Assembly: GCA_016748015.1 (NCBI GenBank)
Contig: JAAOMT010000003.1
Location: forward strand, 624,373 to 688,372
Source of the DNA: Geosiphon pyriformis uo1
Taxonomy: Eukaryota > Fungi > Glomeromycota
DNA length: 64,000 nt
Reading direction: 5' to 3'
Position numbers and translations under genes: made by a program. Position 1 is the first letter of the stretch; the number at the start of each line of letters is the position of its first letter. Below the pieces are notes generated by a model. The model saw only the letters and a program-made list of their open reading frames with translations, was not told the DNA's origin and did not search any database. Positions 5,478 through 37,890 of the stretch are shown here, piece after piece.

Positions 5478-6664
5478 AAATGGTTTTGATTTATTATACT
5501 AAATAATAAAAAACTTTTTTCAAAAAACTTTTTGACTTTTTTTGGGAATTTTGAGATGAAAAAGAGAAAGAAATTTTTATTTTTATTTTTATTTTTTTTT
5601 AAATTTAATAAGTTCTGAATAATTAAATTTAAATAATTAAATCTTAAATTGTTTTTAAAATTTAAATTATAATAAATTTTAAGATTAGATTTTTTTGAAA
5701 TTTTTGAAATTTTTGTTTTTTTCTAAATTAATATATTTTTAGTTGTTAATTAAGCTATAATATGATAATAGTAATAAAAATCAAAAAAATAAAGATATAA
5801 ATAATTGTAATTTAAAATTTTCAATAAATTAGTGCTTTTAAAGTTAGTTTAAAATAGAAATTATATGTTTTTTGACTTTGTAATAAACAATAACAATGTT
5901 TTTTTTGTTGAAATTTGAATTGTATATAATAGTATAAAAGATTTACTAATAAGATAATTTTTAGTTTTTTTTAACTAAGTAATTAATTTTTTTTTAAAAT
6001 AATTACAAAAATTTATAATTTGTTTTTTTTTGTTTTTAAAGTTATTAAAATTTTTTTTTAAGTATATAATTTAATTTTATAATTTATTTTTACAATTATT
6101 AATGCAAAATTGTAGTTTTAAAAAAAATTAATATGTTATAATAATTTTTTTGGTGTTTTTGGATTTTTTGTTTTTTTTTAAAAATATATAATCTTTTTGT
6201 TAATATAAAAATTAAAAGCTAATTTAGTTAAAAAACTGTTATTAATTAAATTTTAAATATTTTTAATAGTATTATAATAAAATTTTTAAATAATTTGTTT
6301 TTGTAATATTTAATTTTATTACTTTTACTTTTTTATAAATTTTTTTTTACAAAAAACACTAAATATTATAAGTAATTAAATAATATATTAATTTATAAAT
6401 AACTATTATAAGTTTATTAAGTAATTTAAAAATTTTGGTATTTAAAAGTTTTAATTAATTGAGTTTTTTATATAATAAAAAAAATTTTTAATAATAGTTA
6501 ACAATATTTAATATATAAATTTATTTTAGTGTTTTTAATTTTTTTAAAAAATAATTTAATAAAATAATTTTATATTTATTTTTGTATTTTTTACCAAACA
6601 ATTATTAATATTATAATTTTTGTGTTTTTTAATTAATTAATAAAACAACACAAAACAAACACAA

Positions 6665-6693
6665 AATAAATAAATAAATAAATAATAAATAAA
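6665..6693. repeat. (TAAA)n microsatellite
   Basis: aataaataaataaataaataataaataaa. Confidence 0.7.
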
Positions 6694-7616
6694 AATTAAT
6701 ATTTTATTAATAATTATAATTAAAAGCTTAAATAAAAAACTATTAACAAAATAAGTTATTATTTTAGTATTATAATTTTAAATAAATATTATTAGTATTA
6801 AATTTCTAACTGCTAAAATTATTTAATAAAAATCTAATAAAAAAATTTTTTTTTTGGAATTTTTATTATTATATTATCTAATAATTTCTAATAGATAATT
6901 GGTTAATTTATACAATATTTAATTATTAATTATTTCTTTATATTTACTTTATAAATAATAATGCTTTTATAAATATAAATAGACATAAATTTTTTTTCTT
7001 ATATTAAAACAAGTCTTTACTTTAACTTTGTTTATATTTAAACTATTAACAAAAAAGTTTATTAAGTTTATTACTATAAATAAAAGTATATCAAAATTTT
7101 TTTACAAAAAAAACAAAATAAAAAAAAAAATTTTTCAAGTTTTTTTGGTTTTTATTATAATTAGTAATTAATAAATAAAAAAGTTTTTTATTAATTAATA
7201 AAAGTATTTAAATATAAATAATTAAATTTGGTTTTAATCTTTTAAATAAATTAATATTAATTACAAAATAATTAATAATTTTATTTTTTTATTTTTTTGA
7301 ATTTACAATTTTAATAATTAGTAATATTATTTTTTTTAAAAAATTGTTTTTTTTATTTTTTTGGTTATTTAAACAAAAATAATAAAATAGCTTAACTATT
7401 ATTAAAATTAAATTTTCAACTTTTTATAATAATATTATTATTATTAAAACTGGTTTAATTAGTTACTTAAAAGTAACTTTAAATGTAATTGTATTAAGAA
7501 AAACTATAAAAATAGAATTTGCTTTTTTTTTGTTTTTTTATTAGTAAAACAGCTAAACAAAAAATTGTAAAAACATTTTTCTTAAATAATTACTTTTTAA
7601 ATGGTCCAAAAAAAAA

Positions 7617-9894
7617 GCTCTTTGTCTCCTTAATTTTATGACCACAACCAGAGCAAAGAGTAAAAAAGCTGTACTTGATATCTGTCCTGAGATATCTAAT
7701 AAAATTTCAACCAGAGAAGCTCTCTCTGTTGTAGAAACAACTAGGCAAAATGTTTTAGAAGTCTTCTCTTTACCCAGTAATCGTGATAAGCTGCCTTTAG
7801 TAGCCACTAAAGCAATTTTCTCATCTTTGGCTGGTTTCTCATCAGTCAAAGTTCCCTCAAAGAAACACACTTGGGTTAGTCTCAGTATTGCCTCCATTCC
7901 GACTAAGAGCCCAAAAGTTTTTAATAATAGACCAGTAAATAAGCTGGTTTTCCCCTCCATAGATTCAACACTTGGTGCTGTTAGCACTATCTCTTCAAAA
8001 AAAATGATCAAAAAGACCAAAAGTTTAGAAAAGTGGGAGCAGTCACTTGTCTCTGTTATTGTTACACCAAACCCCTTTGTGGTTCCCAATGAAATCTTAG
8101 ATGAGATTTCCATAGCATCATTCAGCACATTGTCCAAAATGGGCCAAGATTAACCACTGGCTGTGTTGCCAAATGTGGTGTTTTCCAGCAGATCATCACC
8201 AGTTTTAGAAGCAAATCAATCTTCTCCTGTTGGGTCACTTGTTCTTGGGAACTGGGCTGATCAAATGGAAACTGAATCATCTTCTTCTCTAGTTTCTGGT
8301 ACTCCTTCTGGTAGTACTTGGGAAACTATTACTAGTCATCAAAAGTTTGCTGAGTAGGTGGCCTCTATTCTGGTGTTTGATGCTACTTTTAAGATCAAAT
8401 TGGCTTATGTTAAGGCTGTTTTTCAGTCTGTACATGGTTTCTTAGGTGCTAAATCTGTTTTAAAAGACAATATGAAGCTTTTCTGTATGGAGTTTGCTTC
8501 TCAACAATCTTTGAAAGCTGTATTTCTGGTTGAGTTTACAAGCTCTGTTCATTTGACCACTTTCAAAATTGCCAAGTCTTTGGTGGTTTCTGAATCTATT
8601 TCTCTTTCTGCTGCTGTTGTACTGTAAAATGTGCTCTTGGGTGTGTCTACTGCTAACATTAAGACAGCTCTCAGTATGTTTGGTAGTGTTGCTCATGTTG
8701 TGCTGAAGCCTGCTGGCATTTGGCAGTATGTAGTGGTTTATTTTGAAAAGTTGGACTCTGCTGTGTCTGTTTCGAATTATTGGTCAGTTTTGATGGGCAA
8801 GGATAGTGTTAGAATCTTCCCTTTGGTGAATCAAAATAAGACTATTTTGTCTTGTGATATGTTTAAAGCCAAGTTGGTCAATCTCCCTTCTGGTTGTACT
8901 GCCTTTGAGATTAGTGATATGATCTCTTAGATTGGTGGCTGGACATGTTTTATTCTTCATTTACCCGATTCTGGTCATCATTCCCAGTTTGCTCTGGTTA
9001 CGTTTGGTTCCCGAGTTGATTTGGATTCTGCAATCATTAAAACTGGTATCTTAAGAAAATGCCGTATTTGGTAGGAAACTCCTGATTGTCGGCAATGCTT
9101 CAGGTGTCAAAAAGTGGGCCATTTGGCTGTTGATTGCAAAGTTTCTCTGCCTCTCCTTCCTAAGGCTCCCAAGATGTTCAAACCACATTTTGTTGGTTTT
9201 TTGTCTTATGCTAAGACATCTGCTTTTTCTGTTATGTCTGAATTTTTTCCTTTGGTGGCTTTCGTCCCTTTTGTGGCTGTTGTTGATCCTACTGTTGGGT
9301 CCAGATTAGACTCTTTGGAAAAGCAAATTTCAGATTTGGCTGCCTTGGTAAAATCTATTATTGAGCCTATTGGCTCTTTGGTTGCCTTGATATCTCGTCT
9401 CTTTGATAATAATGTTGTTAAGACTGTGCAGTTAGAAAAAGATCTCCTTTCTATAAAATATGCTTCTAACAATTTTGTCAATCTTCTGGTTGGTGTGTCT
9501 AAAGACATTGTTTGTCTTAGATCTGAAGTTGACTTTGGTGGCATGAATTATGATGATATACAGGCCACCAAACCTTCTTTTTTGAGTGAAAACACTGTTG
9601 AGCATGTTGTTGCTTTGTGGCAGATGTCAGGTGCTAAGGTTAGGAGTAGTATTAAATTTACTAGATTGTTTCTTAATGAGTTTATTTTTGATTCTAGGAA
9701 TCTGAATGATATTATTGAAAAAATTCATGGGTTGGAGTTATTCTCACCTCCTATTGTTTCAGCGTAGTGTGTTCTTAACTGGTCCGAGTGGCTGATTACA
9801 TGTAGAAAACGCATGATTAGCACTTAATTTAGATTGATTCTTTGATGTATTGTTTTAGGTAGCTTTTGGGCCTCACTCGTTAAAAATAAAAAAA
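7617..9894 (+). mobile_element. ORF1-only non-autonomous LINE derivative (HAL1-like), copy 1
   Basis: About 21 nt of 5' leader, one 2130-nt ORF1 frame, then directly the LINE-type 3' UTR (tgtgttcttaactggtccgagtggctgattacatgtag...cctcactcgtt) and an A-rich tail. Near-TSD ggtc(c/a)aaaaaaa at 7603 and 9895. Confidence 0.88.
7638..9767 (+). pseudogene. ORF1-type protein (about 709 aa; three RRM-like segments, CX2CX4HX4C knuckle CFRCQKVGHLAVDC, coiled-coil C-terminus) with in-frame stops
   Basis: ORF pieces starting at 7638, 8163, 8358, 8631 and 9114 are all in one frame. The interruptions are point-mutation stops, mostly explicable as CAR/TGG transitions. Confidence 0.88.
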
Positions 9895-10356
9895 GGTCAA
9901 AAAAAACAATTATTAACATTAATAATTATAGCAACAGCAAAAATTTTTAAATTTTTAAAAAAAGTTTTTCTTTTAACAACAGTTCTGTTTTTTTTTGAAT
10001 GATTATTTATTTTAAAAAAGAATATTATAATACCAAATATGCTATATAAAGGAATTTTGAATTTCAATGTTGGCCAATAAGATTTCATTTTTTGTCAATT
10101 GATTCTAAGGAGCTACAAAACAGAAATTTAAGAAAAATGCCACAATATATTAGCCCTTGACTCCCCTTTTCAGCCTAAGCTTAAGCAAAACGACTTGTAT
10201 CTCCTAGGTATACTTGTTAAAAATCAAAGCATTGCAGTTAAAGAAAGCTTTTACTTTATGTGATTTAGAAGAACTCTCAAATAGAAAAAGCCAATACTTT
10301 TCTTTCAAGGCCTGAACAGGTTTATTACTTTAGAAAGTCAGTGAGGAAACTTAAAG

Positions 10357-10905
10357 ATGCGTATTTCTTTGGTACTTGCACCGCTTTTGCTTTTACTCGC
10401 TCCACTCATACTGGTTGTGATGGCTTCGTTTACAACCTTCGCAGTTGTTACCTCTCTCTTAGCCCTGACTGTTGTTTCGGTTCGTCTCGGTTTTTTTGCC
10501 GTTGAATTCTCGGGTGGTGTGTTACTGTATGTCATCAGGTGGAGCTTGCGAAAGTCTGCAAAACCGGAAGAGAAATTTACCGTAAATCATGACAAAGGTT
10601 TAAATAACATCAATTCTAGTCTTCACAAACGAGAACCAAATCAAAAGCAACACAATCAATCTTCAAAAAAATATTCTCAGCACGTTTCCTACCCTCAAAA
10701 GCAACAACAACAGCGTAAAAATAGTCAATTATATCGTGCCGCAGCTACTAAGGTCAACATGTGGGATGCCAATAATTTTTCGGGAAATTTTGATTTAGAT
10801 CAAAATATTAGAGATGAACTGGCTATGGGGGAAGACTATTTTATGCTTACCGATGGGATCAACACAAAACGTCCGTTTAGTAGAAGGTCAAGGAGCTATG
10901 TTTGA
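10357..10905 (+). CDS. Host hypothetical membrane protein (long N-terminal hydrophobic segment, basic/Gln-rich disordered tail), 182 aa
   Basis: Intact ATG-TGA ORF with normal CpG content, unlike the flanking repeats. Residues ~3-62 are hydrophobic. It resembles a fungal family of small uncharacterised membrane proteins (from recollection, not searched). Confidence 0.75.
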   Translation: MRISLVLAPLLLLLAPLILVVMASFTTFAVVTSLLALTVVSVRLGFFAVEFSGGVLLYVIRWSLRKSAKPEEKFTVNHDKGLNNINSSLHKREPNQKQHNQSSKKYSQHVSYPQKQQQQRKNSQLYRAAATKVNMWDANNFSGNFDLDQNIRDELAMGEDYFMLTDGINTKRPFSRRSRSYV

Positions 10906-11361
10906 TTGAGCTAGACTGCATACATATACATACATTCATTTCTTTCTTCACCTGGCGTGTGGCGCTTAGTTTACAACTGAGAAACATTCCCAAGTTTGGA
11001 TGAATGATTAAATAATATTTAATGAAAGACACTTATTACTTTGCATTTTGCATATTTCTTTTTTAATGATGAAAGCGGCAAGTTATTCACTTTGCAATGC
11101 TTTTTATAGACCTTCATACAACAGAACAATATAACGTTCTTCAATCATCATTCATAAGCAAGAGAATCTTCCGAGGAATTTGCTCTATTACAAATCGGTT
11201 AAATAAATCTAATATCCTAGTGTTATTGTGGAAGTATTATAAAATATATATTTTATGAGACCACTTAACATATAGAGAAAGCAAAACCGTGACGTCATTC
11301 CATCTTTTTTGAAGATCACTGTAAAAGACTAAGCGAAAATAAATACACCTGACTTCTCAAA

Positions 11362-11730
11362 ATGTTAATACTATCATCTTCACAATTTCTGCTACCAAGA
11401 AAGGTTACTTCTATGCCTGTGTCTAGCGCAAAACAAAAAGAGGATCTCAAGCAACAAAAACAAATCTCAATTTTTTTTCAACCTATGAATTCTTCAGTGA
11501 TAACGGGTCAGGTATTAATATCAAATGATTGGAAACAAAAAAGCTGCAGAATGGTAAAAATTGTTTTTATCTATCATGTTAGACTTTGTCAATTTGCCTT
11601 TGACTTCTTTTAAAATGTCTTTTTTCTTTATTCTGTTGATAAGCATTAACATAATTTTGTCATTAATACAGGTTGTATTTGTTGTATGCTAGAAGAAAAG
11701 CTGCATATTATCAATGAAAATATTAAAACA
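11362..11730 (+). other. Possible first exon(s) of a host gene or gene remnant truncated by the repeat desert
   Basis: Non-degenerate composition. ATG at 11362, possible donor cag|gtatta at ~11511, acceptor ..aatacag at ~11671, donor cag|gtaaag at ~11731. The second exon hits a stop in the obvious frame. Confidence 0.25.
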
Positions 11731-13626
11731 GGTAAAGAGCTTTTTAAGTCAAAAATTAATTAAGCTTTTTTATATATTGTTTTCTTTGCGAGTTTTAAGC
11801 TAAACTAGATATTAAAAATCAAAATCATTAAAACTAATATTTTTTTGTGTAATTAAAGTTTTTTATTTAAAATTTGTAAAGGTTTTAATATTAAAATAAT
11901 AATATATATTGTAACTTTAAAAATTCAAATTTTTAATTATATTTTGAACAATTTCAAAATTTTTTAACTGTTACTAATCATTATAAGTAACTTAAAATTT
12001 TTTAATTTTAAAATTAATTTTTAAAAAGTAATAATAAACAAATTTAAAATATATTTTATAATTTATTTATATTTAAAACAAATAATATTTAATATTTTTA
12101 ATAATTAAAAACCAATAATTAAGCAAATAATTTTTTTAAAAAAAACTTAAAACAAATTTTGATTATTATTAAATATTTTTTAAAGTTTTTACAAACAGCT
12201 TAAAAATATAATTAATAACATATATATGCTAATAAATAAATAATTTTTTTTTGCTAATTAAATTTTGTTTACAGTTATATTAAATTTACTTAAAAACTAT
12301 TTTTTGTAATTTTGTATTTGGTTTAACAAATTATATTTTATATATTTAAATAACAATTTAATAATTTTTTTTATTGTTTTAATAAAGTGTAATTTTTTTA
12401 TTAACGATATTATTTTTTTTAAAATTATTATAAATATAAAACATGTATTTTTAATATGTAATTAGTTATTTAAATTTAAGTTAATAAATACAAAATTGTT
12501 ATAAATTATAAAAAAAAAATTTTGTTATTTTTATAATTATAGCCAAAGCAAAAAATAATAAATTATATTTTCTCTATTATTTGAAACAACTAATAGTATT
12601 TTTATTAGTAAAATATTAACAGTTATTAAATTACTTATTAATATTTTATAAAAACATTTTTTTTAAATAAATAGTTATAAACTAACTTTTTATTAGTTTT
12701 ATTTAAAAGATTTAAAAAACTATTTTTGTTATTATTACTTTTTTTATTTTAACTCATATGATTAAAATAGCCAAAAAAACAATTACTTCTTTTTTTTAAG
12801 TAACTAACTTTTTTAAGATTCTTAAAAATGTTTTTTTTTATGTTTTTTAGCATAATATTAATATTTTGAAACTTTGTTTTTTTTGTAAAAAATAAAATAT
12901 TAATTTTATTTAATTTTTTTAATAATTATACTAATTTTATAGTAATTACATTAATTAAAGTGTTGTTATAATTTAAAAATTTAATAAAAGTTATAAAATA
13001 ATATAAATTATTTAATTATAATATAACATAATAATAATCTTAAAAAAGTAATAATTAATATAAGCAATAATTATCAAATAATATTAACAGTAAATATTAT
13101 CTTGTAAGAGTAATAAATACTATATTAAAATATTAAAAATAAAGTATATATTATAAATTATAAATATATATATATACAATAATTTTAATATTAAAAAAAA
13201 AAATTTTATTTTTAAAAATTTTTGGTTTTTATTATCTATTTTTTACAGTAATTAATCTTTAACAATTACTTTAAAATAAATATTCAAAATAAATTTTTAA
13301 TAAAAAAAAATAAGAAATAATAATTAATTATTACAATAAAAATATTAGAAAAACTTATTTGTACTATTTATTAAATAAAACTGTTATTTATTAACTAAGT
13401 CTTTTAAAAAATAATTTTTAATTAAAATTATTTATATTATTAATAAAAATACTAAAAAATTATTAATATTTTGTATTTTTAAATTAAAAAAACACTTTAG
13501 ATAATTACAAAAATAGCTTTAAAAAAAAATCTTAACAATAGTAAATGAATTTCAAATTAGTCTTTAAAAAAACACACTAATATACAATAACAATTAAAAT
13601 TTAAGAAAAAGTTTATATTATAATAT

Positions 13627-14292
13627 TGTTACAGTTGAAACCCATACTTTTTATTAGTTATTATATATATTAACCATTAATATTATATAATTAGTTATCC
13701 TATTTTTAGATAGTAATCATTGACCTAATTAATAACTTTACTTTTGATCTGATTATTGATTATTTTTAATAACTATATAAGTAATGAATCTCTTAACTAT
13801 AGAAAAAAAAGTAAGAATCAAAGAAAGCAAAAAAATAAAATAACAATTTCATCTTAATTCTTCTTTTCTTACTAATTTTTCTTTTTTTACCTTTAAGTAT
13901 CTAAATATCTTGAGATAAAAAATTACTTGTTGGTATTTACCTACTCTTTTCTTGACTTGAATAATTGTAGCATTTGAAGATCATTGAATAAAATATGACT
14001 AAAAAGCATATTTAATACTTGATATTAAATTCTAAGAGTGTTAATGTAAGGCATAGAATTATACTAGTGTGTTATTATTTGTTAAAAGTATGAACTATCC
14101 CTCTATTTTCAAATTTTCCAATTATTTTTTGAAAAAAATAGTGACTAAAATATTTTATGAAACTGATCTTGCACATTAAATCCATATTCATTCAATTTGC
14201 TTATTAAAGTTAAATCTTCTTTGATTAATTCTATTATCTGATAATTCTGTTCTTTTTTGTTATTTGTTAGTTTATTACTCTAACCCATAACA
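13627..14292. mobile_element. Solo LTR (or LTR-like non-autonomous element), 666 bp, family distinct from the other LTRs here
   Basis: Begins TGTTACAG and ends CCATAACA, matching the TGTTACGG...CCGTAACA termini of the Gypsy LTRs after CpG decay. Flanked by 4-bp ATAT on both sides. Less AT-rich than its surroundings. Confidence 0.7.
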
Positions 14293-14519
14293 ATATTAAT
14301 ATTATTATATCAAAAAATAATTTTATTACAGTATCTAAACTAAATTTAATTATAAACAATAGTTTTTTTTTTAAATAATAATAATAATAATAATAATATA
14401 TTTATTAAAACTAACTTTAATTAATTTTTGATTATTTATTAATATTTAATAGATTTTATCAGTTTTAAAAACAAAATAAAACACATTTATATATGTATTT
14501 TTATTTAATTAAATAAAAA

Positions 14520-15030
14520 TTAAATTATTTTTTGTTGTTTTTTAATATTGTTTTTAATAGTACTTAAAAAACAATTACTAATTATTTAAAATTTGTTAAA
14601 TAAGTAATTTTTATTTTAATATTTGGTGTTATTTTAAAATTAAATTGGTTTTTATTAAATTTTTATTTTAATTATTATCAAATTATATTAATTTCAAATT
14701 AATTTTAAAAAAAATATTAAGTTGGTTTATATAAATTTTATTTTTTAAGTTTTTTTAAATACTGTTGTTAAAACTATTATTAATAATTTTATTTTTTTGA
14801 TTACTTTTTAAAAAGTTTTTTATAATAGTTTTTGTTTTTTTTCTGTTGTTTTTTATAATATTTTTGTTAAATTAAAGCCTATTAACTTGTAAAAATATGT
14901 TATTATTTATTTTAAGAATTTTTTTTCTGTTATTATTATTTATATTTATTAGTTTATATTAATAAAAAAACAATATTAGAATTTTTTTTGTTTAATTATA
15001 AAGAAATTATTGTCTTAAAAAATAAAAAAT
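14520..15030 (+). pseudogene. Hypermutated ghost of the ORF1-only element ORF
   Basis: Aligns codon by codon with 8290-8850 when mostly G>A and C>T changes are allowed, e.g. agt act taa aaa aca att act aat tat vs agt act tgg gaa act att act agt cat. Confidence 0.75.
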
Positions 15031-15504
15031 TTTTTTTATAAATCTTTCTATTACAATAAAAATACTGACAAAAAAACCAAAAAGCTTAGTATAGTTACTA
15101 TTATAATTAACATTTTTGTTAACTTTTTAAATTTTTGTACTTTAAAAGATAATAAACATATTTTATTTAGATTATAAAAAAGCAAAGTAAACAATTAAGT
15201 AGACAGTACAAATAATGCTTTAAAAATTAATAGATTAGACAATTTAATTATTGAAAAAAACTTGTTATACTAATTCAAATAACTTGAAAAATAACAAAAA
15301 CATAGATAATATTATATTATATTATATTTAAACTACTATATATAATTTAATAAAATTACTGTATCTTTTTTATTATTATTATTAATGTTTAATAAGTGAA
15401 GTCCAAATGCTATCTAGTGCAATACATTATTCAAATGATCTAAACTAGGCACGAATCATGCTCTTACTACACATAACCAGCTACTCAGACCAGTCAAGAC
15501 TACA

Positions 15505-18500
15505 CTAGACACCTATATGAACCAAAACCTTGTCACAAGTACCAGAAAAAAACAAACAGGACTTATAAAACCTAAAACTGATGCCAAACGCTTTAGCAAC
15601 TCCCAACAACCTAACAATACTAAACAAAAACCACTCAAAAAAACCAAAAACAGAGACAGGAATGGAGCCATCACGTGGAATTAGCCTGTTTTTTTCCATA
15701 ACAGCATGGTGTTTCACATGGACCAGCCAAATATCATCCTGGAATGCAATACAAAAATTGCACACAAAGTTCACCACATTAGTAGCCACCACTTTAGGGT
15801 CTTTAAAAGTGGAAACAGATTCCTGATACCAATCTCTGAAAACAAAACCCTTGCACAGAGCTGCACCAGTCACAACATCAGATGTACAAGTAGACAACAA
15901 CTGTGAAACACAAAAGAAAGAACGAGATAAACCAGAACAGGTCTTTCAAATTATGGCAAAAGTATTCATCAAACAAGAATGACCAGCTGCATCAAAGGAG
16001 CAGGAAAAGACATGATCAGAAACCTTGACATCACCACAGAATAAACATGTCATGCTGGGATAATGTCTATCATACAGACACTTATGCATAACCACAGGAA
16101 GTTGGTGGTGCAAAGTCTTTATAAAGTAAGTCTAAAGGCCAGCCATTTGTGCACTAGTGGAACCAGCAGCCATGTGGGAATCAGAGTATCACACCAAAAA
16201 AAATCTAGACCAATTGATATCACCACGTAAACCACCAACCACAACCTGAAAACCAGAGCCAACCTCCCAATATATTCAGTTAACAGACCGAAAAACATCA
16301 TGAACAAAGTGTCTCAAATTACCAAAAACCACAGAATCACTACTTCTTAAAAAACACTCACCAATCCTATGAGATAGCCATCAAGAAGAGGAAGCTGCTG
16401 CCTTAGCAAGTGCATCAGCTTACTTATTGCCTAAGACACCTGAATGACCCTTAATTTTGACCCAATTCATATTCAAATTCTTATTTTGAATAACATCAGT
16501 AATGTGGCAATGCTCGATCCAGCACTGATTCCTGAAATCAGGATGAATCAACAAAGACTCAGACTTACATGCATTCAAAGCTGCTTGGCTGTCTGAGAAT
16601 AAGTCAACCGAACAAAAAAGAGGAATACACTCAAGTGCCAAAGCAATGGCCTGTAATTCTGCCAGTGTTGAGGAAACTATGCCAGACACCCTTATACCCA
16701 AACCCAAATGAATGTCCTCGAAAAAAGCAGCAGTACCAGTCTTTATACTTACAGTACCCAAACTACTTAAAGACCTATCTGTATACACAGATAGACTAAC
16801 AGCAGCATTAGTGTTCAGCAGAACATCACAAACAACACCAAAATTGTGTGATTAAAGAACATCAAAAAGAGCATAACCATTCATAGAGGGAAAACAAACA
16901 GAAAAAGAAGAAACAATACCACCAAGAAATTGTATAGAGAGATCAAACCAGAGAGGAACTGGGCCATAGGAGTTCAGTCTTTTCCAGCACTTGAAGATAT
17001 TCCAACTAAAAACAGCACTGGCCCGGTCACATAACTGCTCCATGAAAGCAACACTGTAAAGGCAGAGTGAGGAAACATACTTGAAAAAACAATGCTTACC
17101 AAGAACAAGAGACATAAGAGAACCACCACAAAAATGAAAAGTGCTAGGAAAAGAACCACCAAGAGACAAATCACATCCAGAAAGGATATGGACCACCCCA
17201 GCCAAAAAATTGTTTGTAGGACAGACCTTAATACAAACTGAAAATTGCAAAGAATGATGAGAATATCAACTGAGAATCTGAAAGTTATAAGATCTGTAAG
17301 AGAATAAGCAACCCAATAACCCAACAGAATTCACAAAGAAAACAACAGAAGCCGATTTGCTCTTAGCCTGAATTTGTTTGAAAGTTCTCAAACCATACAA
17401 AGAGGGATGATGGAGTGCATCATTGGGAAAGTTGAGCAGAAGGCCAGCCTTAGACTTCAAGCCTTTGCAAATCATGGCATCCCACTTATTATACACATTC
17501 AAAAGAACATAACTGAACTGCATCCTGTAGCAGACAATCAAAAAGAGTACAGCAGACACCAAATATGCAAACTGTTTATCTGAAACCACTTTTTTCAAAA
17601 CAAGATTAGCAAAAAACCAAACATCTGAGTAAACTTTGACCAGACTAGGCCTCGACAATCTCTCAGTTGACAAAAAAATACCCAAATAATGATGACATTC
17701 CCCTTTTTTGACAATGGAAATAGGTGAGCCATTGATAGTCAGATAAGAGTTCACAATCTGGCAGTTGATAGAAATGGCCACCATCTTGTCATTATTTATT
17801 GAAATATCATTAAACCTGAAAAACTCACTAGCAATATCAAGGATGTATTGTATAGCAGCCTGGCTGTTACCAACCCAAATTGTATCATTGACAAAAACAC
17901 CGGTGGCAAAAAATAATGTCAATTTGGCCTGAGGATCCGCTTAGCCAGTTTTGGATATAAAATGGAAATTCAATCTGTATCTACACATACTCTCCTGTCT
18001 CTTGACTTCACACAAAAGCAAATCATAGAAGATGCATCAAAGAAGAGGTGAGAAAACTTCTCCTTGGTCCAATCCATTATGAACATGATACCCATCAGTT
18101 AAGCCAAAATCAGTCATCACCCTATTGATGCACCCATTGTAAATACTACCAAAAAATCTTATAAACTTGTTACACATTTTAATTCTAACCAAACTTCTCC
18201 TGAGATGTTCCCAACCAACTAAGTCATAAGCCTTGTGCATGTTCTGCAAAACCAACCAGAGTTTTCAGTTCTTCTTTAAGACATCTTCAACAACAGAACC
18301 AATGGTGAAAATGTGGGACTGTGTTGTCATACCTTTTAGAACAGAAAAATTGTCCTTACGAAGAACATCAAACGTACTGCAAGCTGAGGAAATCCTATCC
18401 AAAAAGACCTTGGAAAGAATCTTGTAGACCGTTTCAATCAAAGCAATAGGATGGGTGTTTGTAAGAACTCCCTCTCATTCATAAGGTTTCAGAATCATCA

Positions 18501-20199
18501 AGACCTAAGCTTTCCTCCAAGATCCAGGAACCAATTCACCAACCAAGCAAAAGTTCAAAAGCACTAGAAGCATATCCAAAACTGACTTGTCACATCATTT
18601 CTACAATTCATTAGAGATGCCAGAAAGTCCAGTAGTTTTCTTATCAGGAAGCTCCTTGACAATGGCAGACATCTTATCAAAACTAACAGAACACATAACC
18701 CCAGAAAAAACACTATTAAACACATAATCTAAAGACTGATATTAGTGGGCCCAATTGTCGAAAACATCAGATACCATTCTGCATTTTTTGGTCCACCCTT
18801 CCATGATCTTATCTATCTTAGGCTTGACCAAATCAGATTCCAAAATCAACTTATTCTTCACAACAAGATAATCTAAGACCACTTTGCAGAAGGGATGCTC
18901 CAACACACCCTTGATGGTGTGGCCTTTGTCCAGCTCAAAACTCTCCATCCTTTTATTAATGACTTGCTTGATAGATGATTCCTCAGTGCGTTTGGATTCC
19001 AATAACTTAGAAGAGCAATACAACTTTCTTGCTTTAGCCAGTGCAGAGTGAATGACATCAAAATTAGAACCTAAAAGTAAAAGGGACTTTACTGCCAATG
19101 CACCAATGGAATCGAGTCTGTCCCATATCTCGAGCAAAAAAACAAAATCATCACTAAAAACCAAACATAAAGCCCTAACCAATTTAGATACCAGCAATTC
19201 CAGCTTATGAAATCTGAATGATATCTTGGTAAAAACACTATTAAAACTCTTAAACCACTTTTTTTTGAATGTTCCATCTGCTGAAAGAACCATAATCTTG
19301 TGAATAATGTTCTACATAGCATTCAAATCCGAAAATTTACTGGCCGAAGAGAACTCATTCAAAAACATTGCAGCATTGACCACTGTAAACACTCAAAACT
19401 CACACCATTTAGTATCATTCGCATTTTTGACATTGAATTTCCAACAATCTTTATTTGCTTGTTTGCACAACGAAATCAGATGAACATCAAGCAAGCCACC
19501 CAAATCCACAGAGACAGAAACAGCCTTGTGGTCAGTATCAAAATGGTCCATAACATCAGCCACACCATGATCCACAATTGTATTAACCAGATTTAAAGAA
19601 ACGAACAAATAATTATTTGTTTTTAATACATCATGAGAATTACTCTAAGTAGATGTCTTCACAACAGGACTCCCATTTAGAGAATTCACCAAACCCAAAT
19701 CAAAGCATTTTTTATAATTAGCACACCTACGAGACCTGTCCTCATTAAAATTACTGCCAAGAATAACGAAGGATGAATCATTCATGGCCTTAGCAATTAG
19801 AGAGTTGATGTCACCAGCTTGAAAAAACCTGACCACCAAAGAGGCACCAGCATAAAGCCCCAAAATCAAAACTGAAAGCTTGTTTTTGAAAAGCAGCCTG
19901 ATAAAGATGAGCTGGCCAGGCACCTCAGAAATCTTGCAAACATGCTTCACCAAAGAATTGGTCATAACAACAGCCACACCAGCACCCAGATAACCAGAAT
20001 CCAGACCAGAAATACACACTCACACACCATCAAATCTATTGGCAATCCAGGGGCGAATCTTCCCTTTTAATTTTGATTCAGTAAAAATAGAAATCAAATT
20101 GTCCATGTTTTTGTGCCAACAAATAACATCATCCTGCTTGGCAAGATTGTTCATCCTGTAAATATTACACATGGCAATCTTCCAAACAAAATCTGTTAT
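15505..20199 (-). pseudogene. LINE ORF2: APE endonuclease, RT, RNase H, C-terminal CCHC finger
   Basis: ILGSNFNE (EN); LQNMHKAYD, GLDQGEVFSPLL, FVNDTIW (RT, decayed VDD); YTDRSL, ELQAIALAL, FSDSQAAL, WVKIKGHSG (RNase H); CLFCGDVKVSDHVFSC (~16000-16050). Confidence 0.93.
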
Positions 20200-22080
20200 T
20201 AAGAAAGGGGTTTGAGAAGCACACCACTAGTCAGAATTGAATCATCAAACCTTGCTGTTAGACTTAAAACTGAAGCAGAAAGTTCTTCCAACATATTTTC
20301 CAACCTTTTTACCTTAAAAGAGGCAGAAGAAACCAAAATTGCAGCAGTATTACCACTAGTGGCCCCACCCAAGCCCTCTCCCATCACTACATCATCCACT
20401 TGATCCTGTGATAAGGGGGTTACCGACAGCTGACATCCAAGGCTAGGCTGAGAAACTGCTAGCACGAATAAGTCCAACCTTTTAGCCAACTCACCAATTT
20501 GCCTCACAAAGTTGGCAATACTGCTTTCCAGAACTGCAAATCTTATTTCCAAATTATTCATAACAAAAAGAGTAGGCTTCATCTCCAAAAAGGAGCCAGC
20601 ATTTACCAAACCATTTCGAACAGGGGAAGGAGGAAAAGAAGACCCACCAACAATCTTGGCCCACAAAACTCCACCAAAAGAGACAGAATGAGCAACAGAT
20701 GCTGAACACTTGGCGTAAATGGCCGCCAATCTGTCTTTATCTGCATCTGACAAAATTCAATGTGGCAAGCCACTAGAAAAAAATTTTCCACCTGAAACAC
20801 AGTCCAGAGATATATGACCCAGTTTCTCACACTTTGTACACATAGCAAAGCCAAGATAGAACCAACAAAATGAGTATCTTCTAACACAGATGTGGTTCTT
20901 ATGATGGCATCTAATAATTCAGCTGACTCAAAACAAACAATGGCACATTTGGCCCAGGCATATGTAACCAGATGGTGATCAATCACACAAGTTTTTTCAC
21001 CCACAGAACCAATGAAGTCTTAAACATCGTGAGCATTTGTTTTCACTGAAAGAGTGTAGAGCAGCACTTTATAATGATCTCTCATATCTCATGTCAATTT
21101 GTTTAAATCTGATCTGGCAACATGTACCACATCTTTCCCAATTAAGATGGACCACCTAGCCACCAAAAGATCTGCTTGATTCCACTCCTCAAATTTCACA
21201 ATCACTTTTTACTACAGCCTTACCAACTGTATCTTGATTGACTTAATCATACCAAATTCAGATAGCACAGTGTGCACAGTCTCAGCTGATGTTCTCACTG
21301 GAATTTTTTTTAGCACCACAGTCTAATCTGAGTGACCAGTCAATTTTTTGAGATTGGTGTTCACCAAGATTTTCACATCAGCAGCCAATTTGGTAGTTTT
21401 CATTAAACTAGATTCAGAAATGAATGTCACCCAGATGATCCCAGAAAATTTTGAGGAGGTAGAGGCCCCTCCAAAACCATTGATTTTTGAAAATAATTTC
21501 CTGACCACAGCTAGCTTGTCCTGAGCAGATTTTCCAGAAATATTAATCAGATCAATATCCAAAGCAAAAGACTTTCTAGCAGACACATTGACTAATTTTT
21601 TGAAAGGGAGGGAAGCACCACAGATTCATCCAGGAAAATGTTATCATTATCATCGTTGCCCAGAAAGTTAATTTTGCCCAAAGGCTTGCCCAAAGCCTGC
21701 TTGGCAACCAATCTCGAACTCTTTGGCATTTGGTTACTGTCTATTTCTTCAAGAACATCTCTCTCTCCATAATCCACACTAGTTTTCTTAATCAAGAACT
21801 TCCCCTCTATATCTATACTGTCTGATTCAGTAGTATCACCAGCTTCAGACCCCCAAGAACCACCAACTGGTTGATCAGATAAAATCATTCCATGAACAAC
21901 ACTATCTTTTAGAACACCCCCTTTTCTTTTTTTTTTAGAGGCAACATCTTTGCTAACAGTATTCTTACTAAAGTCTTTGACAGACTTCTTCATTGCAGCC
22001 ATACTGAGACCAACAATGGTTTCATAGTCAAGCAGAAATGGTTTTGATTTATTGTACTGAATTGTAAAAACTTCTTTCAA
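20199..22080 (-). pseudogene. LINE ORF1, type A
   Basis: Fragments 21592-22080, 21323-21586, 20603-21004 and 20199-20753; RRM-like segments, CTKCEKLGH knuckle, coiled coil. Confidence 0.9.
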
Positions 22081-22493
22081 AAAACTTTTGACTCTTTTTT
22101 AGAAATTTGGAATGAAGAAGAGAAAGAAGTTTTTTCCAATAAAATTCCTGTATCTTTTTGTAATTATTATATAAATATATTAGTTATTTTTGGAAAAAAT
22201 TTAAGTAATAAATTAAAAATTTTTATTTTATTAAATAAATAATTTTAAAAAGCTTTAATTTCTTTAAAATTTTATAAGATTATTTAATTAATGTTTGTTT
22301 TTAAAATTAATCTTAATTAAACTAAAAATTTAGCTATTAATAAAAAATTTTTGATTAATGTTAATTTTTTTTATTAGTTTAATAAGTGAAGCCCAATCAC
22401 TATCTAATACAATACAATTATCTAAATTTCTAAATTAAATGTGATTCATGCTTTTGCTACATGTGACTAACCATTCAGCCAATTAAGACTACA

Positions 22494-25400
22494 CTATACA
22501 ACTATATTCACTATAACTCTGCTAGCAGCACCAATGAAAAACAAATGGCCAATACTCAGGCCAAAGTTGGTGGCATAATCTTTCTCAATTCTTAACAAAT
22601 AAGCAACACTACCTGAAATCATAGCAAAAAAATCTTAAATGATATCATACAAAAACTCATTCACACATAGCAACTCATAATACTCCATTTTAGCTTAAAG
22701 TTTTGAATTAGGCACCCAAATTTGCTCCCTATGGCCAGCAACCATACTCCAAACAAATTCGACCAGATTAGACATTATAAGCTTAGTATCCACAAAAAAT
22801 ACTTTAGCATCTGTCAATCAATCTTCAAACACAAAACTCTTGCACAAAATTGTATAAAGACTAACATCAGAAACAGAAGAGGTCAAAGACTGTAGAACTG
22901 CAAACGATGACAAGGTTGCCTTAATAAGAGATTCCAAAGAGAAGAATGCTCACTTAATAAGCTTTGATGTATTGAAAAGTCCAAGTCACAAACAAAATTA
23001 TGATCTGAGAAATCTACTTCTTCGCAATATACACATAACATACTAGGATAACTTCAATCATATAAGTAATAGCCACAAACAGTCTTCCGTGTAAAGCTTT
23101 CATCAAATATATGCACAAACTAACAGTGGTTTTGCTTGTATATTTTGCAGACATGTGAGAGTCAGGATACCAAACTGAGACAATATAAACCCAATTTATG
23201 TTGCCAACCCATGAAGGATCCACAATGCTCAAGCCAGGTCCAAATTTCCATTGAAAACATCTAACAGTATCATTTGTAGTTCTAATAAAGTGGTGTGCAT
23301 TGCCAGAAATCATCTTACAATTCATTATTAAGATTTTTTTTTGATGTTTACTAAAAAAATAAGCCTTAATAATGTGGCCAGATTATCCAAACAATCAGCA
23401 TGCTCATTGTCTAACACACCAGAGTGATCTTTCACCTTCATTCAAGTGACAGAAATGTTTTTATATTTGACCAAATTGCTAATATAATGGTGTTCTATCC
23501 AGCACTTATTGCAAAAATCAGGAACCACCAATCTCAACTCAGCCTGACAAGCATCCAAGAAAGCCTGACTGTTAGAAAAAACTGTAATATTTGAGAAAGC
23601 TGGAATGCACTTGAGAACCAGTACAACAGTCTGCATTTTAGCTAGAGTAGACAATAGCAAACCATAGATCTTCACACCTATGTGCAAACCCAGATCAAAA
23701 AAATAGGCAGCAGTCCTTCTAACAGCATTAAAAGTACCAAAGCCTTTAACAGAACCATTAGTATAAACTGAAATCATCAGCAAAAAGGCATCTTTCAAAC
23801 TAAAATAGATAAAACCAAAGCTGTCTGTATTAGAAACATCCAACTTGAAAGGGAATTCAAAAGTGGGAGAGGAACTTTTAACCAAACCACCACTCTTGAT
23901 AAAATCTGAAACCAGTATAAACCATAATGGAACTAGACCTCTGGGATCCATTTGTTTCCAATGGTGAAAATCCTTTCAATTAAAACATTCTCCATGACTA
24001 TTCAATAATTAGTCTGCAAAAATGATCCCAAAATGCTTTAGTGATCTGCAAATCTGGAGATACAGCATCTGGCCCAAAACATTCAAAACAGAAAAACCAT
24101 GCTTGAGATGAAAAGCATTGGGCAAGCTATTAGCTAAAAAAATCTCATTATGCAAAAAAATTTTAGTAATACCAGCCAGAAAATTGTTCATCAGATTGAC
24201 CATTAACTTAACAGGAAATTAAAGAGAGTTTTGAAGTATCCAGCCCAAAACCTGCAAATCCATTGACCTATGCCTAAACAGTTGACTTATTAACTCTTTA
24301 TTATTAGCAAACTGTAACACTGATGAGACTTTTGCCTCTGTCTGAATCTGTTCAAAGAACTTCAAATTGTACAAAGAAGGATGGTGCACCACTTCATTAA
24401 AAAAATCTCTAGGCAAACCAGCCTTAGATTTCAACCTCTTCCTAATTATATGGTCTTATTTTTCACATGTGCTTTTATTGATGAAGCTAAATTGAGTTCT
24501 ATATTCTACTATGGACTGTAAAACAGTTGATACCAAATAAGAGAACTGCTTATTCATGATAGCTTTGTGCAAAACCATGAATGAAAAAAACTTGACATCT
24601 GAATTTACCTTCTTTAAACTCAGACCAGAAAGATCTTTATTTAACAGAAAAATACCCAAATACTGATAAGTCTTACCAGCCTTTGTGATTGAAATTGAAG
24701 ACCCACTTACTTCTAAGAAAATATTTCTGGTTCTTGGGTTGATAAGAATGGCAACTGTTTTTTTTGTGTTAATCGATATATTCATTAATTCAAAGAACTT
24801 ATTAGCAATGTTCAAAATGTTTTGTGTCACTGTATAACAATTGTCAACCCAAATGGTATTATCCATGAAAGCACCAGCAGCCAAATAAGAAATCAAACTA
24901 GTATTTGACTTAATTCTGCCCATTCTGGCCACAAATTTGAAATTGACCTGATACCTGAAAAATGACTTATGCTTTTTCATCTTGTACAACAGAGGATTAT
25001 AAAAAATTCTCCACAGAAGAGAAGAAAAAACTTCCCTTTGGTCCAGACTATTGTGAACTTTATAATCCTTGAACAAACCAAAGTCTATTATAACTCTATT
25101 CATGCAGTCATTGTAAATACTACCAAAAAACCTGACAAACTTTTTACACCTTTTGATTCTCTCCAAACTACTTTTCAAATGTAACCAGTCCACTAAATCA
25201 TAAGCTTTGCACATGTCCTGAAGTACCAGCAAAGTTCCCTGCTCTTTTTTAAAGCATTTTCCACAACAGACTTTATAACAAAGATAGGGGACTAAGTAGA
25301 AGTGCCTTTCAACACCAAAAAGTTGTTTTCACACAAAATATTGTGTGTGCTATAAGCTTTTGAAATACAATCAGACAGAATCTTTGAGAGAATTTTCCTA

Positions 25401-27172
25401 GAAGTTTCAATAAGAGCAATAAGTCTGGTGTTTGTTAGAACTCCTTCTTACTTATAAGGTTTTGGAATCATGGATATCCAGGCTTTTTTCTATACATCCA
25501 GAACAGATTCACATACCAAACACAAGTTAAGCAGACACAAAAGAAGGATCAAGACAAACTTATCACAATGTTTCTATATTTCATTAGAGATACTAGACAA
25601 ACCAGCAGCTTTGCCATCAAAAAGATCTTTGACCACTGATGAAAACTCATCAAAATTAATATGCTTTATCATACCAGAAAATGCACTATTATCAACATAA
25701 TTGAGATGAGAAAATTGTTCTTGCCAATGGGAAGGAACAGAAGATTTGACTGTGTATTTCCTAGTCCAATTTTCCATAATTGAATCCACTTTGCTCTTAA
25801 CCAAATTGGGATCTAAAACCAAATCTCCATTATTAACCAGATAATTCAATATAACTTTTTTGAAAGGCTTCTCCAATACACTCTTAATCATTTGATCTTT
25901 GTTGTCTGCAAAAGCTTCTATGTACTTAGCAATGGATGCTCAGATTCATGAATTCTTAGTAGCCTTAAAGTCCAAAAACTTGTGAGACCTATACAATTTT
26001 CTAAAACAAGCCAGTAATTGTTCAATCAACATTTTGTTATGACTATTGCCCAAAGAGCTCTTAAACTCCACAGCTTGATCGAAGTTCAAGTCAACTTATT
26101 TATTAACTAAAGCCTAAAATCTTTCCAAATTTTCTGACTTATATGCATTCAAAATTTTTGCCACCAAAAGTTTTAACTTGTAAAATCTAGAAGATGTAGC
26201 AATTCTGATTAATCTGCTATTTCTGGACCATGTTTTTACAAAAGTAGCTTCTGCTGTAGAGCATACCACTTGACAAAGCAATATTCACATTCCATTAATA
26301 TTATCTTTAGTTCTGTGATATTCAAAATCATCAGCAGTCTTTGAAGCAGCAGCCAATAATGTGTTTCCAAATTTTTTCTAAATCTTATTACCAATGTCAC
26401 TGACTTTGTATCTCCATTTTTTTTTTGTAGTCTGTTTGCATATCAAAGTAAGCTGAAAATTGAGAAGGCCTCCCAAACCAATGTCCACTGACATGACCAA
26501 ATGGTCAGAATCAAAAAATTCATCTGAACAGTAAACTCTTTGGTTAAAAGAAGAACTGCAAAGACCATCACTAACTAAAATAAAGTCTATACACTTCTGA
26601 ACACTCCTCGAATTGGACTATGTGAGACACCTGTGCAAAAAAAAACCATGTAAAGAATCAAGCAAACCCAGATCCAAACATTTCTTGAAGCTTACACTGT
26701 GACCAGAATTATTTTCATTAAAGTCACCACCAAAAACAACAAATATACTGCTATTTAAGGCCTTAACCACCATTGAATTGATAATATGTGAGTAAGCCAG
26801 CCTTTTCTCCAAAGTAGCCCCTACATACAAGCCCAAAACTATCACTGAAAGTTTGTTCTTGAAAAGCAACTTTACAGAAATAAGTTGACCAGACACCTCA
26901 GAAACTCCACACATGTGCTTCGCTAAAAAAGCATCCATGATTATGGCAACACCTAAACCCAAATAACCAAAATCTAAACCAGAGATGAACACTCGAACAC
27001 CATTAAATTTATTTATAATCTATAGACAAACTTTGCCTTTCAACTTTGTTTTAGTAGCCACAAAGATTACATTGCCTATATTTTTGTATTATTGAATGAT
27101 ATATTCCTGTTTGGCAGAATTGTTCATGCCTCTAACATTATATGTAGCCACTTTCCACACCAAACCACTCAT
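22494..27172 (-). pseudogene. LINE ORF2 (APE, RT, RNase H, CCHC)
   Basis: MSGLVWKVAT start; FGGDFNEN; LQDMCKAYD; AFMDNTIW; YLGIFL; VYTNGSV; FSNSQAFL. Confidence 0.92.
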
Positions 27173-29060
27173 TGAGATAAAAAAAGAGCTAAAAAACCCA
27201 AACCAGAATACAGATGATTCAATCTTTCCAAAACTGAACCGATTAAGACCTCAAAAGCTACTATTTTTGATTCTAATTTGCCCACCTTGAAGGTCAGAAC
27301 CTTAGAAAAACTTGAGCTAGAGTCATAGACCACATTAACACTAGCTGAAAAAGAAGGAGCAGATGTTAATGTCACATTATCCAAAGCCATATCCACATCT
27401 AAATGTGACACCAAAGAGGTAGGAATGGCTGAAGGAGGAACACTAAAAAGAAGTACTGTTGGTACCAGTTCTATGCAACTTAACTTTTCCAATATGTCGA
27501 ACACCTAATCTATTAAGAGTTTCAAGAAGCATTCTAAAGAGACCAGATGAACACTTAAGGAAGAGTTGTTAGCTGAAGCAAGAGAGGAATTACTGTTTGA
27601 ATTTAAGACACCAGAAAAAGAGAGTCCAGAACTGGAACCAGAACTGAAATGAGAACCACCAGAAAGACCAGCAAATAAGACCACCTGGGTCCAAGTTTTG
27701 CTGTCAAAGAAAGCAGATCAAAAAATCAGAACACTTTTTTTCTTATACAATCTTGCCAACTGAAAACAATACATATCAGAAGCATTTTTTTTAAAGTTTT
27801 TTTCAGAAAGAACAGATACCAGAGTGTCAGAAACATTACATTCTAAAGCTAAGTGTCTAAACTTCCCACACCTTTCACACTGAACCAAGTCTAATCTAGC
27901 CCAAGAAAGTTTCACATTACCAAAAATTGGCTTAATGCAAAATGCAGATTCAAGCTCATTTTCAGATTCAAAACCAACAACGGCACAGTAAGTCCAGTTG
28001 TCAATCTCTAGAGAACAATTGATCACACAAGTTTTCTCACCAGCCTCTTCCAAAAGAATACCAAGATCATGCGCAAATGTTCTCACTGGCAAAGTAAACA
28101 AAAATGCCCTAAAGCAATCTTTAGACATCTAAGTATCCTAATCTCTCATGGCTATAGCCATATATACTGAATTCTTTCCAATAAGGAATAACCATCTTGA
28201 TATCAGTTGCTTTGCCTGCTCCAATTTGGTGAATTTTATCACAGCCTTCTATTACATTCCAATTAGTTGAATCTTAATTGACTTGATATTACCAAACTCA
28301 GAAACTGTGGTAACAATCATCTCCTTAGGCATATCTATGGGAATTTCTTTAATTACTACGGCCCAATCTGAGCAAATTCCTTGTTTTTTGAGATTGCTGT
28401 TTATGTTGATCTCCTTTTCCCTGGCCAATAAAGTGGTTTTATTCATGTTCTCTTTAAAAGTAAAAGTAGATTGGATGATCCCTTCAAATTTTGAGAGGGT
28501 AGTAGCCTTCTCAAAACCATTGATTGTTGAAAAAATCTTTCTAACAAGCTGAGTTTTTGCTGTGACAGATTTGCCTTCTACTGCCAAAAAATTAATATCC
28601 AAAGCAAATAATTTTTTGACTGACACTTCCACTGGAGTCTTAATAATCTTCAGGTTTATTCACTTTTTGTCTAGAAAGATGAGCAAGTGAAGAGGGAGCA
28701 CAATTTCATCATCATCTATATTATAATTGAGGAAACCAAGAGGGGATCCTAGAACAACACCAGTGTTCACTCTTTTTGCCTTGGAAGTATTAGCTGCTGA
28801 GCCCAAAAAAGACCTACTGTCTATACCTTTTATGACAATATTGTCTTCTCCACTACTGAATTCACTTTCCAAATTCAAATACATACTACCAGGACCAGGT
28901 TTGCACAAAAAAACGTCTTTCTTATCACCTAAGTGCTCAATATTGCCTAAAACCACTCTCTTTTTCTGAGAAAAAAAGCCACCAGCAGGACCATAAAAAG
29001 CACTTTTGGGCATCATTTTTTTAGACATATCACCACCCAAAGCAGTCTTTAAATCTACAA
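27169..29060 (-). pseudogene. LINE ORF1, type B (MSKKMMPKSAFYGPAGGFFSQKK...)
   Basis: Fragments 28660-29060, 28252-28632, 27718-28128 (CERCGKFRHLALEC knuckle) and 27169-27504. Confidence 0.9.
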
Positions 29061-29939
29061 TGTTATGGGATAATTTTCTTGTTATATTTAATTGCTGATA
29101 TCCCATTTTAATTGCAATCAGTCTTTCATGAGTTTCTCAATTCTATTTGTGTGATAATGTCACTGTTATACTGAAGGCTTTCTTTTTTACTGTTGCGATA
29201 TAAGTTATTCTTCAATTCTTGATTGTTGTGTGTGTTTATGTACTCCTTTTCAGAGGCTGAACTGAAATCTACCCACTGTTTGGGGTCTTCTCTGAGGCTA
29301 TCCTTGCAATTGCCTGATGTGTTTCTCTAATCTAGAAACACAGAATGTTAATGGTCTTTAGTGCTTTTTTAATTCTTACAATAAAGCTTTTATCAATTAG
29401 TAACAACGTGAATAATCTTGATCAAGGATTATTCTTCCAAGGGATTCAGTTGATGAATAATAGTTTCATTCAATAAATAATACAAGTAAGTTTTTTAATA
29501 CTTTGGGTTGTGATAGTTCAGTTTTAAATATTCTTTTTTATTTCTTTTTGATTTTAAAGGTTTCTTGGGATATTTAATTTGAAAGTATGATTTAAAATGG
29601 AGTTTGTTGGATAAAATTGGATCTATTGCTTGATAAGTTATGATTTTTATTACTTGATTGATTATTTCCCAATATTAAAACTACTGTATATATACATGTT
29701 TGTAGTTCTACGAGAAAACACATTGTAATACTTTCTTTTTTTGATATTTCAACCTGGTGTTTGCTGCTATCACCAGTTGGTGTTGGCTGCTATTGTGAAC
29801 TGGTGCTTGCCACTATCGTGAGATGGTGTTTGCTACTATGTTAATCATTACCTTTCTAAGATTATTACTGTACTATATTATGATTGAATAGTTTGTATTA
29901 TTTTTATGATTCTTTTTGCTAAATTCTTAAACTATAACA
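29061..29939 (-). repeat. 3' LTR of Gypsy A
   Basis: TGTTA...TAACA; about 97.4% identical to 37891-38769 (23 mismatches by manual count, no indels). Confidence 0.97.
29752..29843. repeat. 23-bp tandem repeat (x4) in the U3 part of the LTR (also at 38582-38673; x6 in the solo LTR at 44258-44395)
   Basis: Units acctggtgtttgctgctatcacc / agttggtgttggctgctattgtg / aactggtgcttgccactatcgtg / agatggtgtttgctactatgtta. Confidence 0.85.
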
Positions 29940-29943
29940 TTAG

Positions 29944-29954
29944 CCCCTCTTTTT
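29944..29954 (-). other. Polypurine tract of Gypsy A
   Basis: Minus strand reads AAAAAGAGGGG just before the 3' LTR. Confidence 0.9.
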
Positions 29955-30621: not shown

Positions 30622-30705
30622 TGTTTTAATTTTGACTGCTATTTTGGAATCTTTTGCATGCGTTTTTATGGTTGTTAAATCATTTTTACTGTAATCTAAG
30701 ATTAA

Positions 30706-32075: not shown

Positions 32076-32104
32076 TGTTGTTGTGATGGATGGGTTGGTG
32101 ATTT

Positions 32105-37807: not shown

Positions 37808-37870
37808 TTTTGTCTCTTCTTTTTTAGCAATGAATTATTGCTAATTATTATTTCCTTTTTTGATTTTCTT

Positions 37871-37888
37871 TCCTCATAGGGTTCACCA
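37871..37888 (-). other. Primer-binding site of Gypsy A (TGGTGAACCCTATGAGGA), probably tRNA-Trp
   Basis: Starts with TGG 2 nt after the 5' LTR. TGGTGAACCC is complementary to tRNAs ending GGGUUCACCA, as in plant-type tRNA-Trp; the tRNA assignment is inference. Confidence 0.75.
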
Positions 37889-37890
37889 AA

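Follow-up and report, generated by a model that had tools for sequence, protein, structure and literature searches.

LINEs that encode only an ORF1 protein are already known from mammals, insects and Dictyostelium. In a passage on bipartite elements, HeT-A (Jockey clade), HAL1 and Ag-Sponge (CR1 clade) are classed as non-autonomous LINEs in which ORF1 is present (PMC5786205), and HAL1 (half-L1) of mammals is described as non-autonomous and as encoding only ORF1p (PMC5753468, PMC3627910, PMC5786205). TRE5-A.2 of Dictyostelium is reported to be mobilised in trans by the ORF2 of its partner, with an essential 3' module (PMC3159450). For mouse L1, an account of ORF1 evolution describes recombination of ORF1 between families and an unstable coiled-coil region (PMC3600994). 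In fungi, the Tad, L1 and CRE clades are named (PMC3956500). The main text of a survey of transposable elements in these fungi (PMC11952901) contains neither 'nonautonomous' nor 'non-autonomous', and its supplementary TE libraries could contain the family described here; another paper (PMC4494074) holds HAL1 in its reference list only. No report of an ORF1-only LINE from any fungus, or from Geosiphon, was found in the literature within reach, which left out subscription papers and Repbase.

The window considered here is a stretch of 64,000 nucleotides of the Geosiphon pyriformis genome. It contains two element copies (H1 and H2) and a ghost. All three very probably belong, in decayed form, to a large family of non-autonomous LINEs that encode ORF1 alone, end in the 3' UTR found on the resident LINEs and are likely copied in trans by the ORF2 protein of those LINEs. 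Like HAL1 as described, the family is ORF1p-only and non-autonomous, with long-kept coding capacity and retained LINE ends. HAL1 is derived from L1 itself, whereas the ORF1 of the Geosiphon family falls outside the clade formed by the ORF1s of its partners; the family differs further in its RRM-CCHC architecture, its extra C-terminal module and its fungal host. With HeT-A and Ag-Sponge, going by their published classification, it has in common ORF1-only coding and probably the need for an autonomous counterpart; head-to-tail neighbours also occur in the Geosiphon family. HeT-A is telomeric and has a long UTR, whereas the Geosiphon copies lie on many long contigs with nothing indicating telomeres, and their UTR is ~120 nt. 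The combination of ORF1 with a short 3' module recalls the published description of TRE5-A.2, in which trans-mobilisation is established and not, as here, inferred. However, TRE5-A.2 arose from TRE5-A.1 by deletion, has kept its ORF1 and targets tRNA genes, while the Geosiphon ORF1 is only ~25% identical to that of its partners and is found without any ORF2 remnant. Parts of ORF1 appear to be exchanged between subfamilies, and the coiled-coil region in the C-terminal module to be unstable, much as reported between families of mouse L1, although the mouse families are autonomous, the Geosiphon lineage is not, and the exchanged parts are only 22–28% identical. The family would work like HAL1, HeT-A or TRE5-A.2; strict membership in HAL1 appears to fail on derivation from the partner.

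Across the window, decayed retroelements of 30–42% GC form a mosaic set within spacers of 8–20% GC. The larger elements around the two copies are the following.

Up to 5704, minus strand: LINE L1.
15385–22129, minus strand: LINE L2, decayed autonomous element and candidate partner type, with ORF1 and an ORF2 with endonuclease, RT and RNase H (domains called on relatives).
22381–29060, minus strand: LINE L3, decayed autonomous element, UTR at 22381–22496.
29061–38769: LTR element, LTRs at 29063–29937 and 37893–38769, 97.8% identical.
~56600–60085, minus strand: LINE L4.

L2 is bounded by a TSD of ~23–30 bp (15324–15384 and 22130–22169), and none of 3000 random spacer pairs scores equally high. 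The LTR element carries minus-strand ORFs of 1293 and 430 aa and is inserted at the start of the L3 ORF1. Its 4-bp flanks are mismatched at two positions, which is compatible with CpG decay of one TSD. The L3 leader, recognised by a looser pattern match, lies near 38886 on the far side of this insertion, and an autonomous-type ORF1 remnant (38890–39563, plus strand) adjoins the L3 5' end. Elsewhere there is an inverted pair of 2.9 kb at 80.5% identity (43403–47346 and 50379–53374) and a third, older LTR-like copy at 43556–44477. GC-richer stretches resembling host genes with introns occur at 10357–10905 (plus strand) and 61000–64000 (minus strand). The spacers of 8–13% GC at 5800–7600 and 11500–15360 appear to be, at least in part, wholly eroded elements. 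A scan of 7500–23000 against Rfam gave no match.

Both copies lie on the plus strand, and their parts are as follows.

7599–7617, plus strand: 5' copy of the H1 TSD, with a T-run just before it; 14 of 16 aligned bases equal those of 9891–9906.
7617–7637, plus strand: pyrimidine-rich leader of H1, resembling the 5' ends of L1, L2 and L4.
7638–9767, plus strand: ORF1 frame of H1, 709 codons, 2130 nt with the stop codon, five in-frame stops; C-terminal type A, sub-type A2.
7638–8312, plus strand: family-specific N-terminal ~225 residues of H1, predicted disordered.
8313–9140, plus strand: conserved ORF1 core of H1, with a further domain, RRMs (Pfam RRM_1 at 415–467) and a CCHC knuckle (485–501).
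9198–9764, plus strand: C-terminal module of H1, predicted to form two long and three short helices and differing among subfamilies.
9765–9882, plus strand: stop codon and 3' UTR of H1, common to LINEs L2 and L3.
9883–9907, plus strand: A tail and 3' TSD copy of H1; in other copies A tails follow 9884 and 9894.
40125–40145, plus strand: leader of H2.
40146–42275, plus strand: ORF1 frame of H2, 2130 nt with the stop codon, nine in-frame stops; C-terminal type B.
42273–42405, plus strand: stop codon, shared 3' UTR (to ~42392) and A tail of H2.

The layout consists of a leader, ORF1, a stop codon, the shared 120-nt UTR, an A tail and, in H1 only, a TSD. An initial annotation made from the letters alone had presented two complete copies with an ORF1 of 2130 nt; the length of the frame is right for both, but the frame is open in neither. 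The leader pattern has eight matches in the window against 1.62 expected, a number that none of 100 shuffles attains, and five of the eight are element 5' ends (H1, H2, L1, L2 and L4), in a test that is lenient in that the pattern had been derived from those very ends. The 3' UTR (~120 nt) matches those of L2 (15385–15507, minus strand) and L3 (22381–22496, minus strand) at 72–76% identity (E 1e-11 to 1e-16), the same level at which L2 matches L3. In all four elements this homology starts at a stop codon, that of ORF1 in H1 and H2 and that of ORF2 in L2 and L3. The H1 TSD (7599–7617 and 9891–9907) exceeds chance, with 21 and 0 of 3000 random spacer pairs scoring as high, whereas no TSD above chance was found for H2 (250 and 372 of 3000). 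Neither H1 nor H2 contains any trace of ORF2. The LINE-like leader on both copies, the LINE 3' UTR beginning at the stop codon with an A-rich tail after it, the near-TSD of the first copy and the lack of an ORF2 trace in both had all been proposed initially, and each is borne out.

Two further pieces of the element are preserved in the window.

14394–15053, plus strand: ghost copy corresponding to H1 bases 507–1276 (z 27–45 against eight shuffles).
12519–12689, plus strand: second ghost piece, from the element 5' end (H1 bases 8–182; z 14–18).

The first had been noticed at 14520–15030; it is real, but longer than was thought. Relative to H1 it is eroded by 87 C>T and 92 G>A changes. The differences between H1 and H2 comprise 238 transitions and 38 transversions, at a rate that is highest at CpG. 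Repeat-induced point mutation specific to CpA was considered and rejected, since changes affect 19 of 22 CpG, 69 of 206 CpA, 68 of 128 CpC and 71 of 197 CpT sites. The C>T decay is present in all contexts and strongest at CpG.

The shared 3' sequence suggests that the partner RT may recognise this end stringently and that the partner ORF2 would mobilise the element in trans. The initial annotation had proposed both, with a conserved stem-loop to be sought by folding the UTR; the shared sequence stands, but no such stem-loop was found. Folding of single UTR strands is no better than that of shuffles (z -0.04 to -1.62). For the alignment of four decayed sequences, 43 of 300 shuffles fold as well, a decay-aware version gives z -0.87, and changes on both sides are seen in one of 25 pairs. 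Pairing between leader and UTR was also rejected, with 261, 156 and 90 of 300 shuffles as good.

The first 225 residues of the ORF1 protein are predicted to be disordered (pLDDT under 35, no secondary structure). Residues 1–230 have no tblastn match in the autonomous ORF1s, in agreement with the earlier view that the N-terminal part is unlike them, and residues 231–503 match the ORF1s of L1–L3 at 24–27%. Within the core (residues 226–503), RRM_1 is detected in 28 of 55 members and zf-CCHC in 34 of 55. The model of the C-terminal module (pLDDT 68) shows two long helices and three short ones and has no match in the PDB. The possibility that this module is a piece of ORF2 or of the partner ORF1 was rejected, as its profile matches neither. 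A full-length AlphaFold model (pLDDT 41) gave weak RRM matches in Foldseek, none with E <= 0.001.

The dN/dS check suggested with the initial annotation indicates purifying selection. Over codons 1–440, pN/pS between H1 and H2 is 0.53; simulations of neutral decay through C>T and G>A give 0.78 +/- 0.08, and none of the 300 falls as low. The raw dN/dS of 0.45 was accepted only after this control for C>T bias, and the C-terminal dN/dS (~1.2) is unusable, the alignment there being ~20% identical. Agreement between subfamilies A/B and D is more frequent at the columns that are conserved in outside ORF1s (65 of 83) than at the others (51 of 98; p = 0.0003). The ORF1 protein was thus under purifying selection in the elements that gave rise to these copies. 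The copies in evidence are all broken sequences or gene models.

The treatment of H1 and H2 as like copies holds for only part of their length. DNA identity is 77% up to 9225, drops to 34–56% over the last ~180 codons and is 74% in the UTR. Family proteins fall into C-terminal types A (109), B (39), C (8) and D (24), with six unassigned, and H1 and H2 are, on their sequences, members of different subfamilies. Types A and B are 76–77% identical over residues 1–520, like copies within one type, and 22% identical over 545–708; the fixed differences of B from A number nine in the first 500 residues and ~100 after. Type D differs along the whole length (52, 48 and 28%), and type C leaves A at ~residue 350. 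These patterns point to swaps of a 3' module between subfamilies, probably by template switching. The same element might instead have acquired its C-terminal types through very fast arms-race divergence, which is unlikely. The types do remain homologous (E 1e-9 to 1e-19 between types), and the tests of tree incongruence are borderline, with p-AU 0.052 against the A+B grouping in the C-terminal tree and no grouping rejected in the N-terminal tree. However, divergence alone fits poorly with the step at ~residue 521 in type B, where even the disordered N-terminus is ~93% alike at majority level, and with the separate departure point of type C. Furthermore, the B C-terminus is as distant from A as that of D, though D differs everywhere (48–52% over the earlier parts).

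The nearest outside relative of the family ORF1 is P0241, at 32% identity over 273 core columns, against 24% for a partner ORF1. On metagenome contig L001, P0241 is the ORF1 in front of an intact endonuclease-RT ORF2, so the family ORF1 is a true LINE ORF1. That LINE (L001:2–5972) has an open ORF2 of 1397 codons with endonuclease, RT and an RNase H-like end, and its ORF1 has one in-frame stop within the contig. Its ORF2 scores nearly equally against human L1 ORF2p (69.5 bits) and R2 (67.7 bits), figures that describe a relative and not the partners themselves. In a tree of the core, the family ORF1 (15 rows) and the partner ORF1 (12–13 rows) form separate clades on long stems, each with support of 100; L4 was excluded from the tree tests as a long branch. 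Nesting of the family within partners of the L1/L2 type or the L3 type is rejected (p-AU 0.002 and 0.00009) in tests that took in two of three partner subclades; the data are compatible with family and partner ORF1s being deep sisters (p-AU 0.44). Because nesting is rejected and the clades are separate, the family would be older than the radiation of its partners or foreign to them, and not the product of a recent deletion. As far as these trees go, the element cannot simply be derived from the LINEs with which it has its ends in common.

The family is multi-copy and spreads as a unit, as seen from the number of homologues, the tailed contigs, the joints and the types. A protein search at near length found 277 homologues among 7996 candidates scored, and the 120 listed are all hypothetical proteins of Geosiphon pyriformis, none with an RT domain. 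A search of longer proteins, covering the 7978 candidates that share most words, found nine homologues among those scored. A profile search returned 732 representatives, of which the best 150 were listed. The family count rests on gene models and on short contigs from one sample. Summed depth relative to the flank is ~950x over the 5' part and 128x over the C-terminal part; this is not a copy number, and it was taken only to mean hundreds of copies or more.

In contigs of run X1, A tails follow the UTR at 9884 (15 contigs) and at 9894 (11 contigs, with a median loose length of 184). Three non-self contigs, among eight listed, bridge the stop codon with at least 31 letters on each side. Other coding ends join the UTR near 9765–9780, and no loose end behind the stop codon occurs among the six of 81 shown. 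The UTR was directly observed for sub-types A2 and B and not for the main A, C and D. The head-to-tail joints 9885>7621 and 9923>7619 each run from a 3' end into a following 5' end. Among gene models, P0138, P0146, P0206, P0123 and P0144 show that family copies often have another family copy or a LINE as a head-to-tail neighbour, in material where only same-strand pairs can be joined.

The C-terminal module is present in 210 of 274 family proteins examined, and its last helix is reached in 179. Past that helix, 155 of these proteins stop within 40 residues and 24 continue; in none of the 179 does an endonuclease follow within 120 residues. As a control, the autonomous-type ORF1 leads directly into the endonuclease in seven models (eight junctions), and five others stop before it. 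The long models are family ORFs fused by the gene caller to a neighbour, which is a whole LINE with its own ORF1, a family copy or a host gene. P0219, a candidate for a family ORF1 followed by ORF2, was rejected; it consists of a family fragment and, after it, a LINE of a third type that has an ORF1 of its own. This third autonomous type, found in Geosiphon pyriformis in P0270 and P0219, has a different ORF1 followed by endonuclease, and it groups with metagenome ORF1s in the tree.

The case against a separate family, namely that most copies are followed by ORF2 and that H1 and H2 are independent deletions with different breakpoints, had been named at the outset; it was looked for among gene models and contigs and not found. 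A related explanation is that the copies stem from an unseen autonomous LINE with the same ORF1, through repeated internal deletions or through spliced or template-jumped ORF1 RNA. Some observations fit: the distant relative P0241 precedes an intact endonuclease-RT ORF2, and in P0126 (at mid-RT) and P0156 (after RNase H) the family C-terminus runs into a late part of ORF2. In P0262 an N-terminal piece is joined to RNase H. Truncated neighbouring LINEs may explain these three models. However, not one of the 179 models continues into an endonuclease, and the junction falls at the stop codon in two subfamilies with C-termini only 22% alike. There is neither a splice or deletion scar nor an ORF2 remnant, and the C-terminal module matches neither ORF2 nor the autonomous ORF1. 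An unseen parent LINE is therefore improbable. The proposal of an independently propagating family without ORF2 is upheld by the models that lack an endonuclease, the tailed contigs and the purifying selection on ORF1. A further possibility is a host gene family that has expanded, or an ORF1 that was domesticated for a cellular role and then multiplied as retrocopies. It would suit the annotation as hypothetical genes and the selection on the protein, but is very hard to credit: both window copies carry a leader and a UTR of LINE type and an A tail, H1 has a TSD, tandem joints and ghost copies exist, both window copies are broken, and copies differ by decay-type changes.

For the ORF1-only LINE family, a putative cycle can be outlined. 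A source copy would be transcribed from its own leader, and its ORF1 protein would coat the element RNA, the RRMs and the CCHC knuckle binding RNA while the long helices oligomerise. The endonuclease-RT-RNase H protein of an L1-, L2- or L3-type LINE would then bind the shared 3' end, nick a T-run/A-run target, reverse-transcribe from the A tail and leave a TSD of ~19 bp. Such a target resembles the site of the L1 endonuclease. Template switches between related RNAs may swap the 3' third of ORF1, and in new copies C>T and G>A decay would put stops into the frame.

A more far-reaching reading is possible but doubtful. On this reading the ORF1-only lineage would be old, its gene would have come from another LINE lineage, and it would have taken on both the 5' and the 3' ends of the residents. 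The lineage would ride on several partner families, outnumber them and keep exchanging a C-terminal module that would recruit partner ORF2 or escape restriction by host or partner. This would amount to a hyperparasite arms race, in the first such element in a fungus.

At least 200 annotated 'hypothetical proteins' of the Geosiphon pyriformis genome represent copies of this element instead of genes. The family is relevant to how a non-autonomous RNA evades the cis preference of ORF2p, and to the question of why such an element retains an ORF1p of its own. Its four naturally occurring C-terminal variants, all attached to one RNA-binding core, offer ready material for swap tests, as does the 120-nt end common to elements whose ORF1s are 25% alike.
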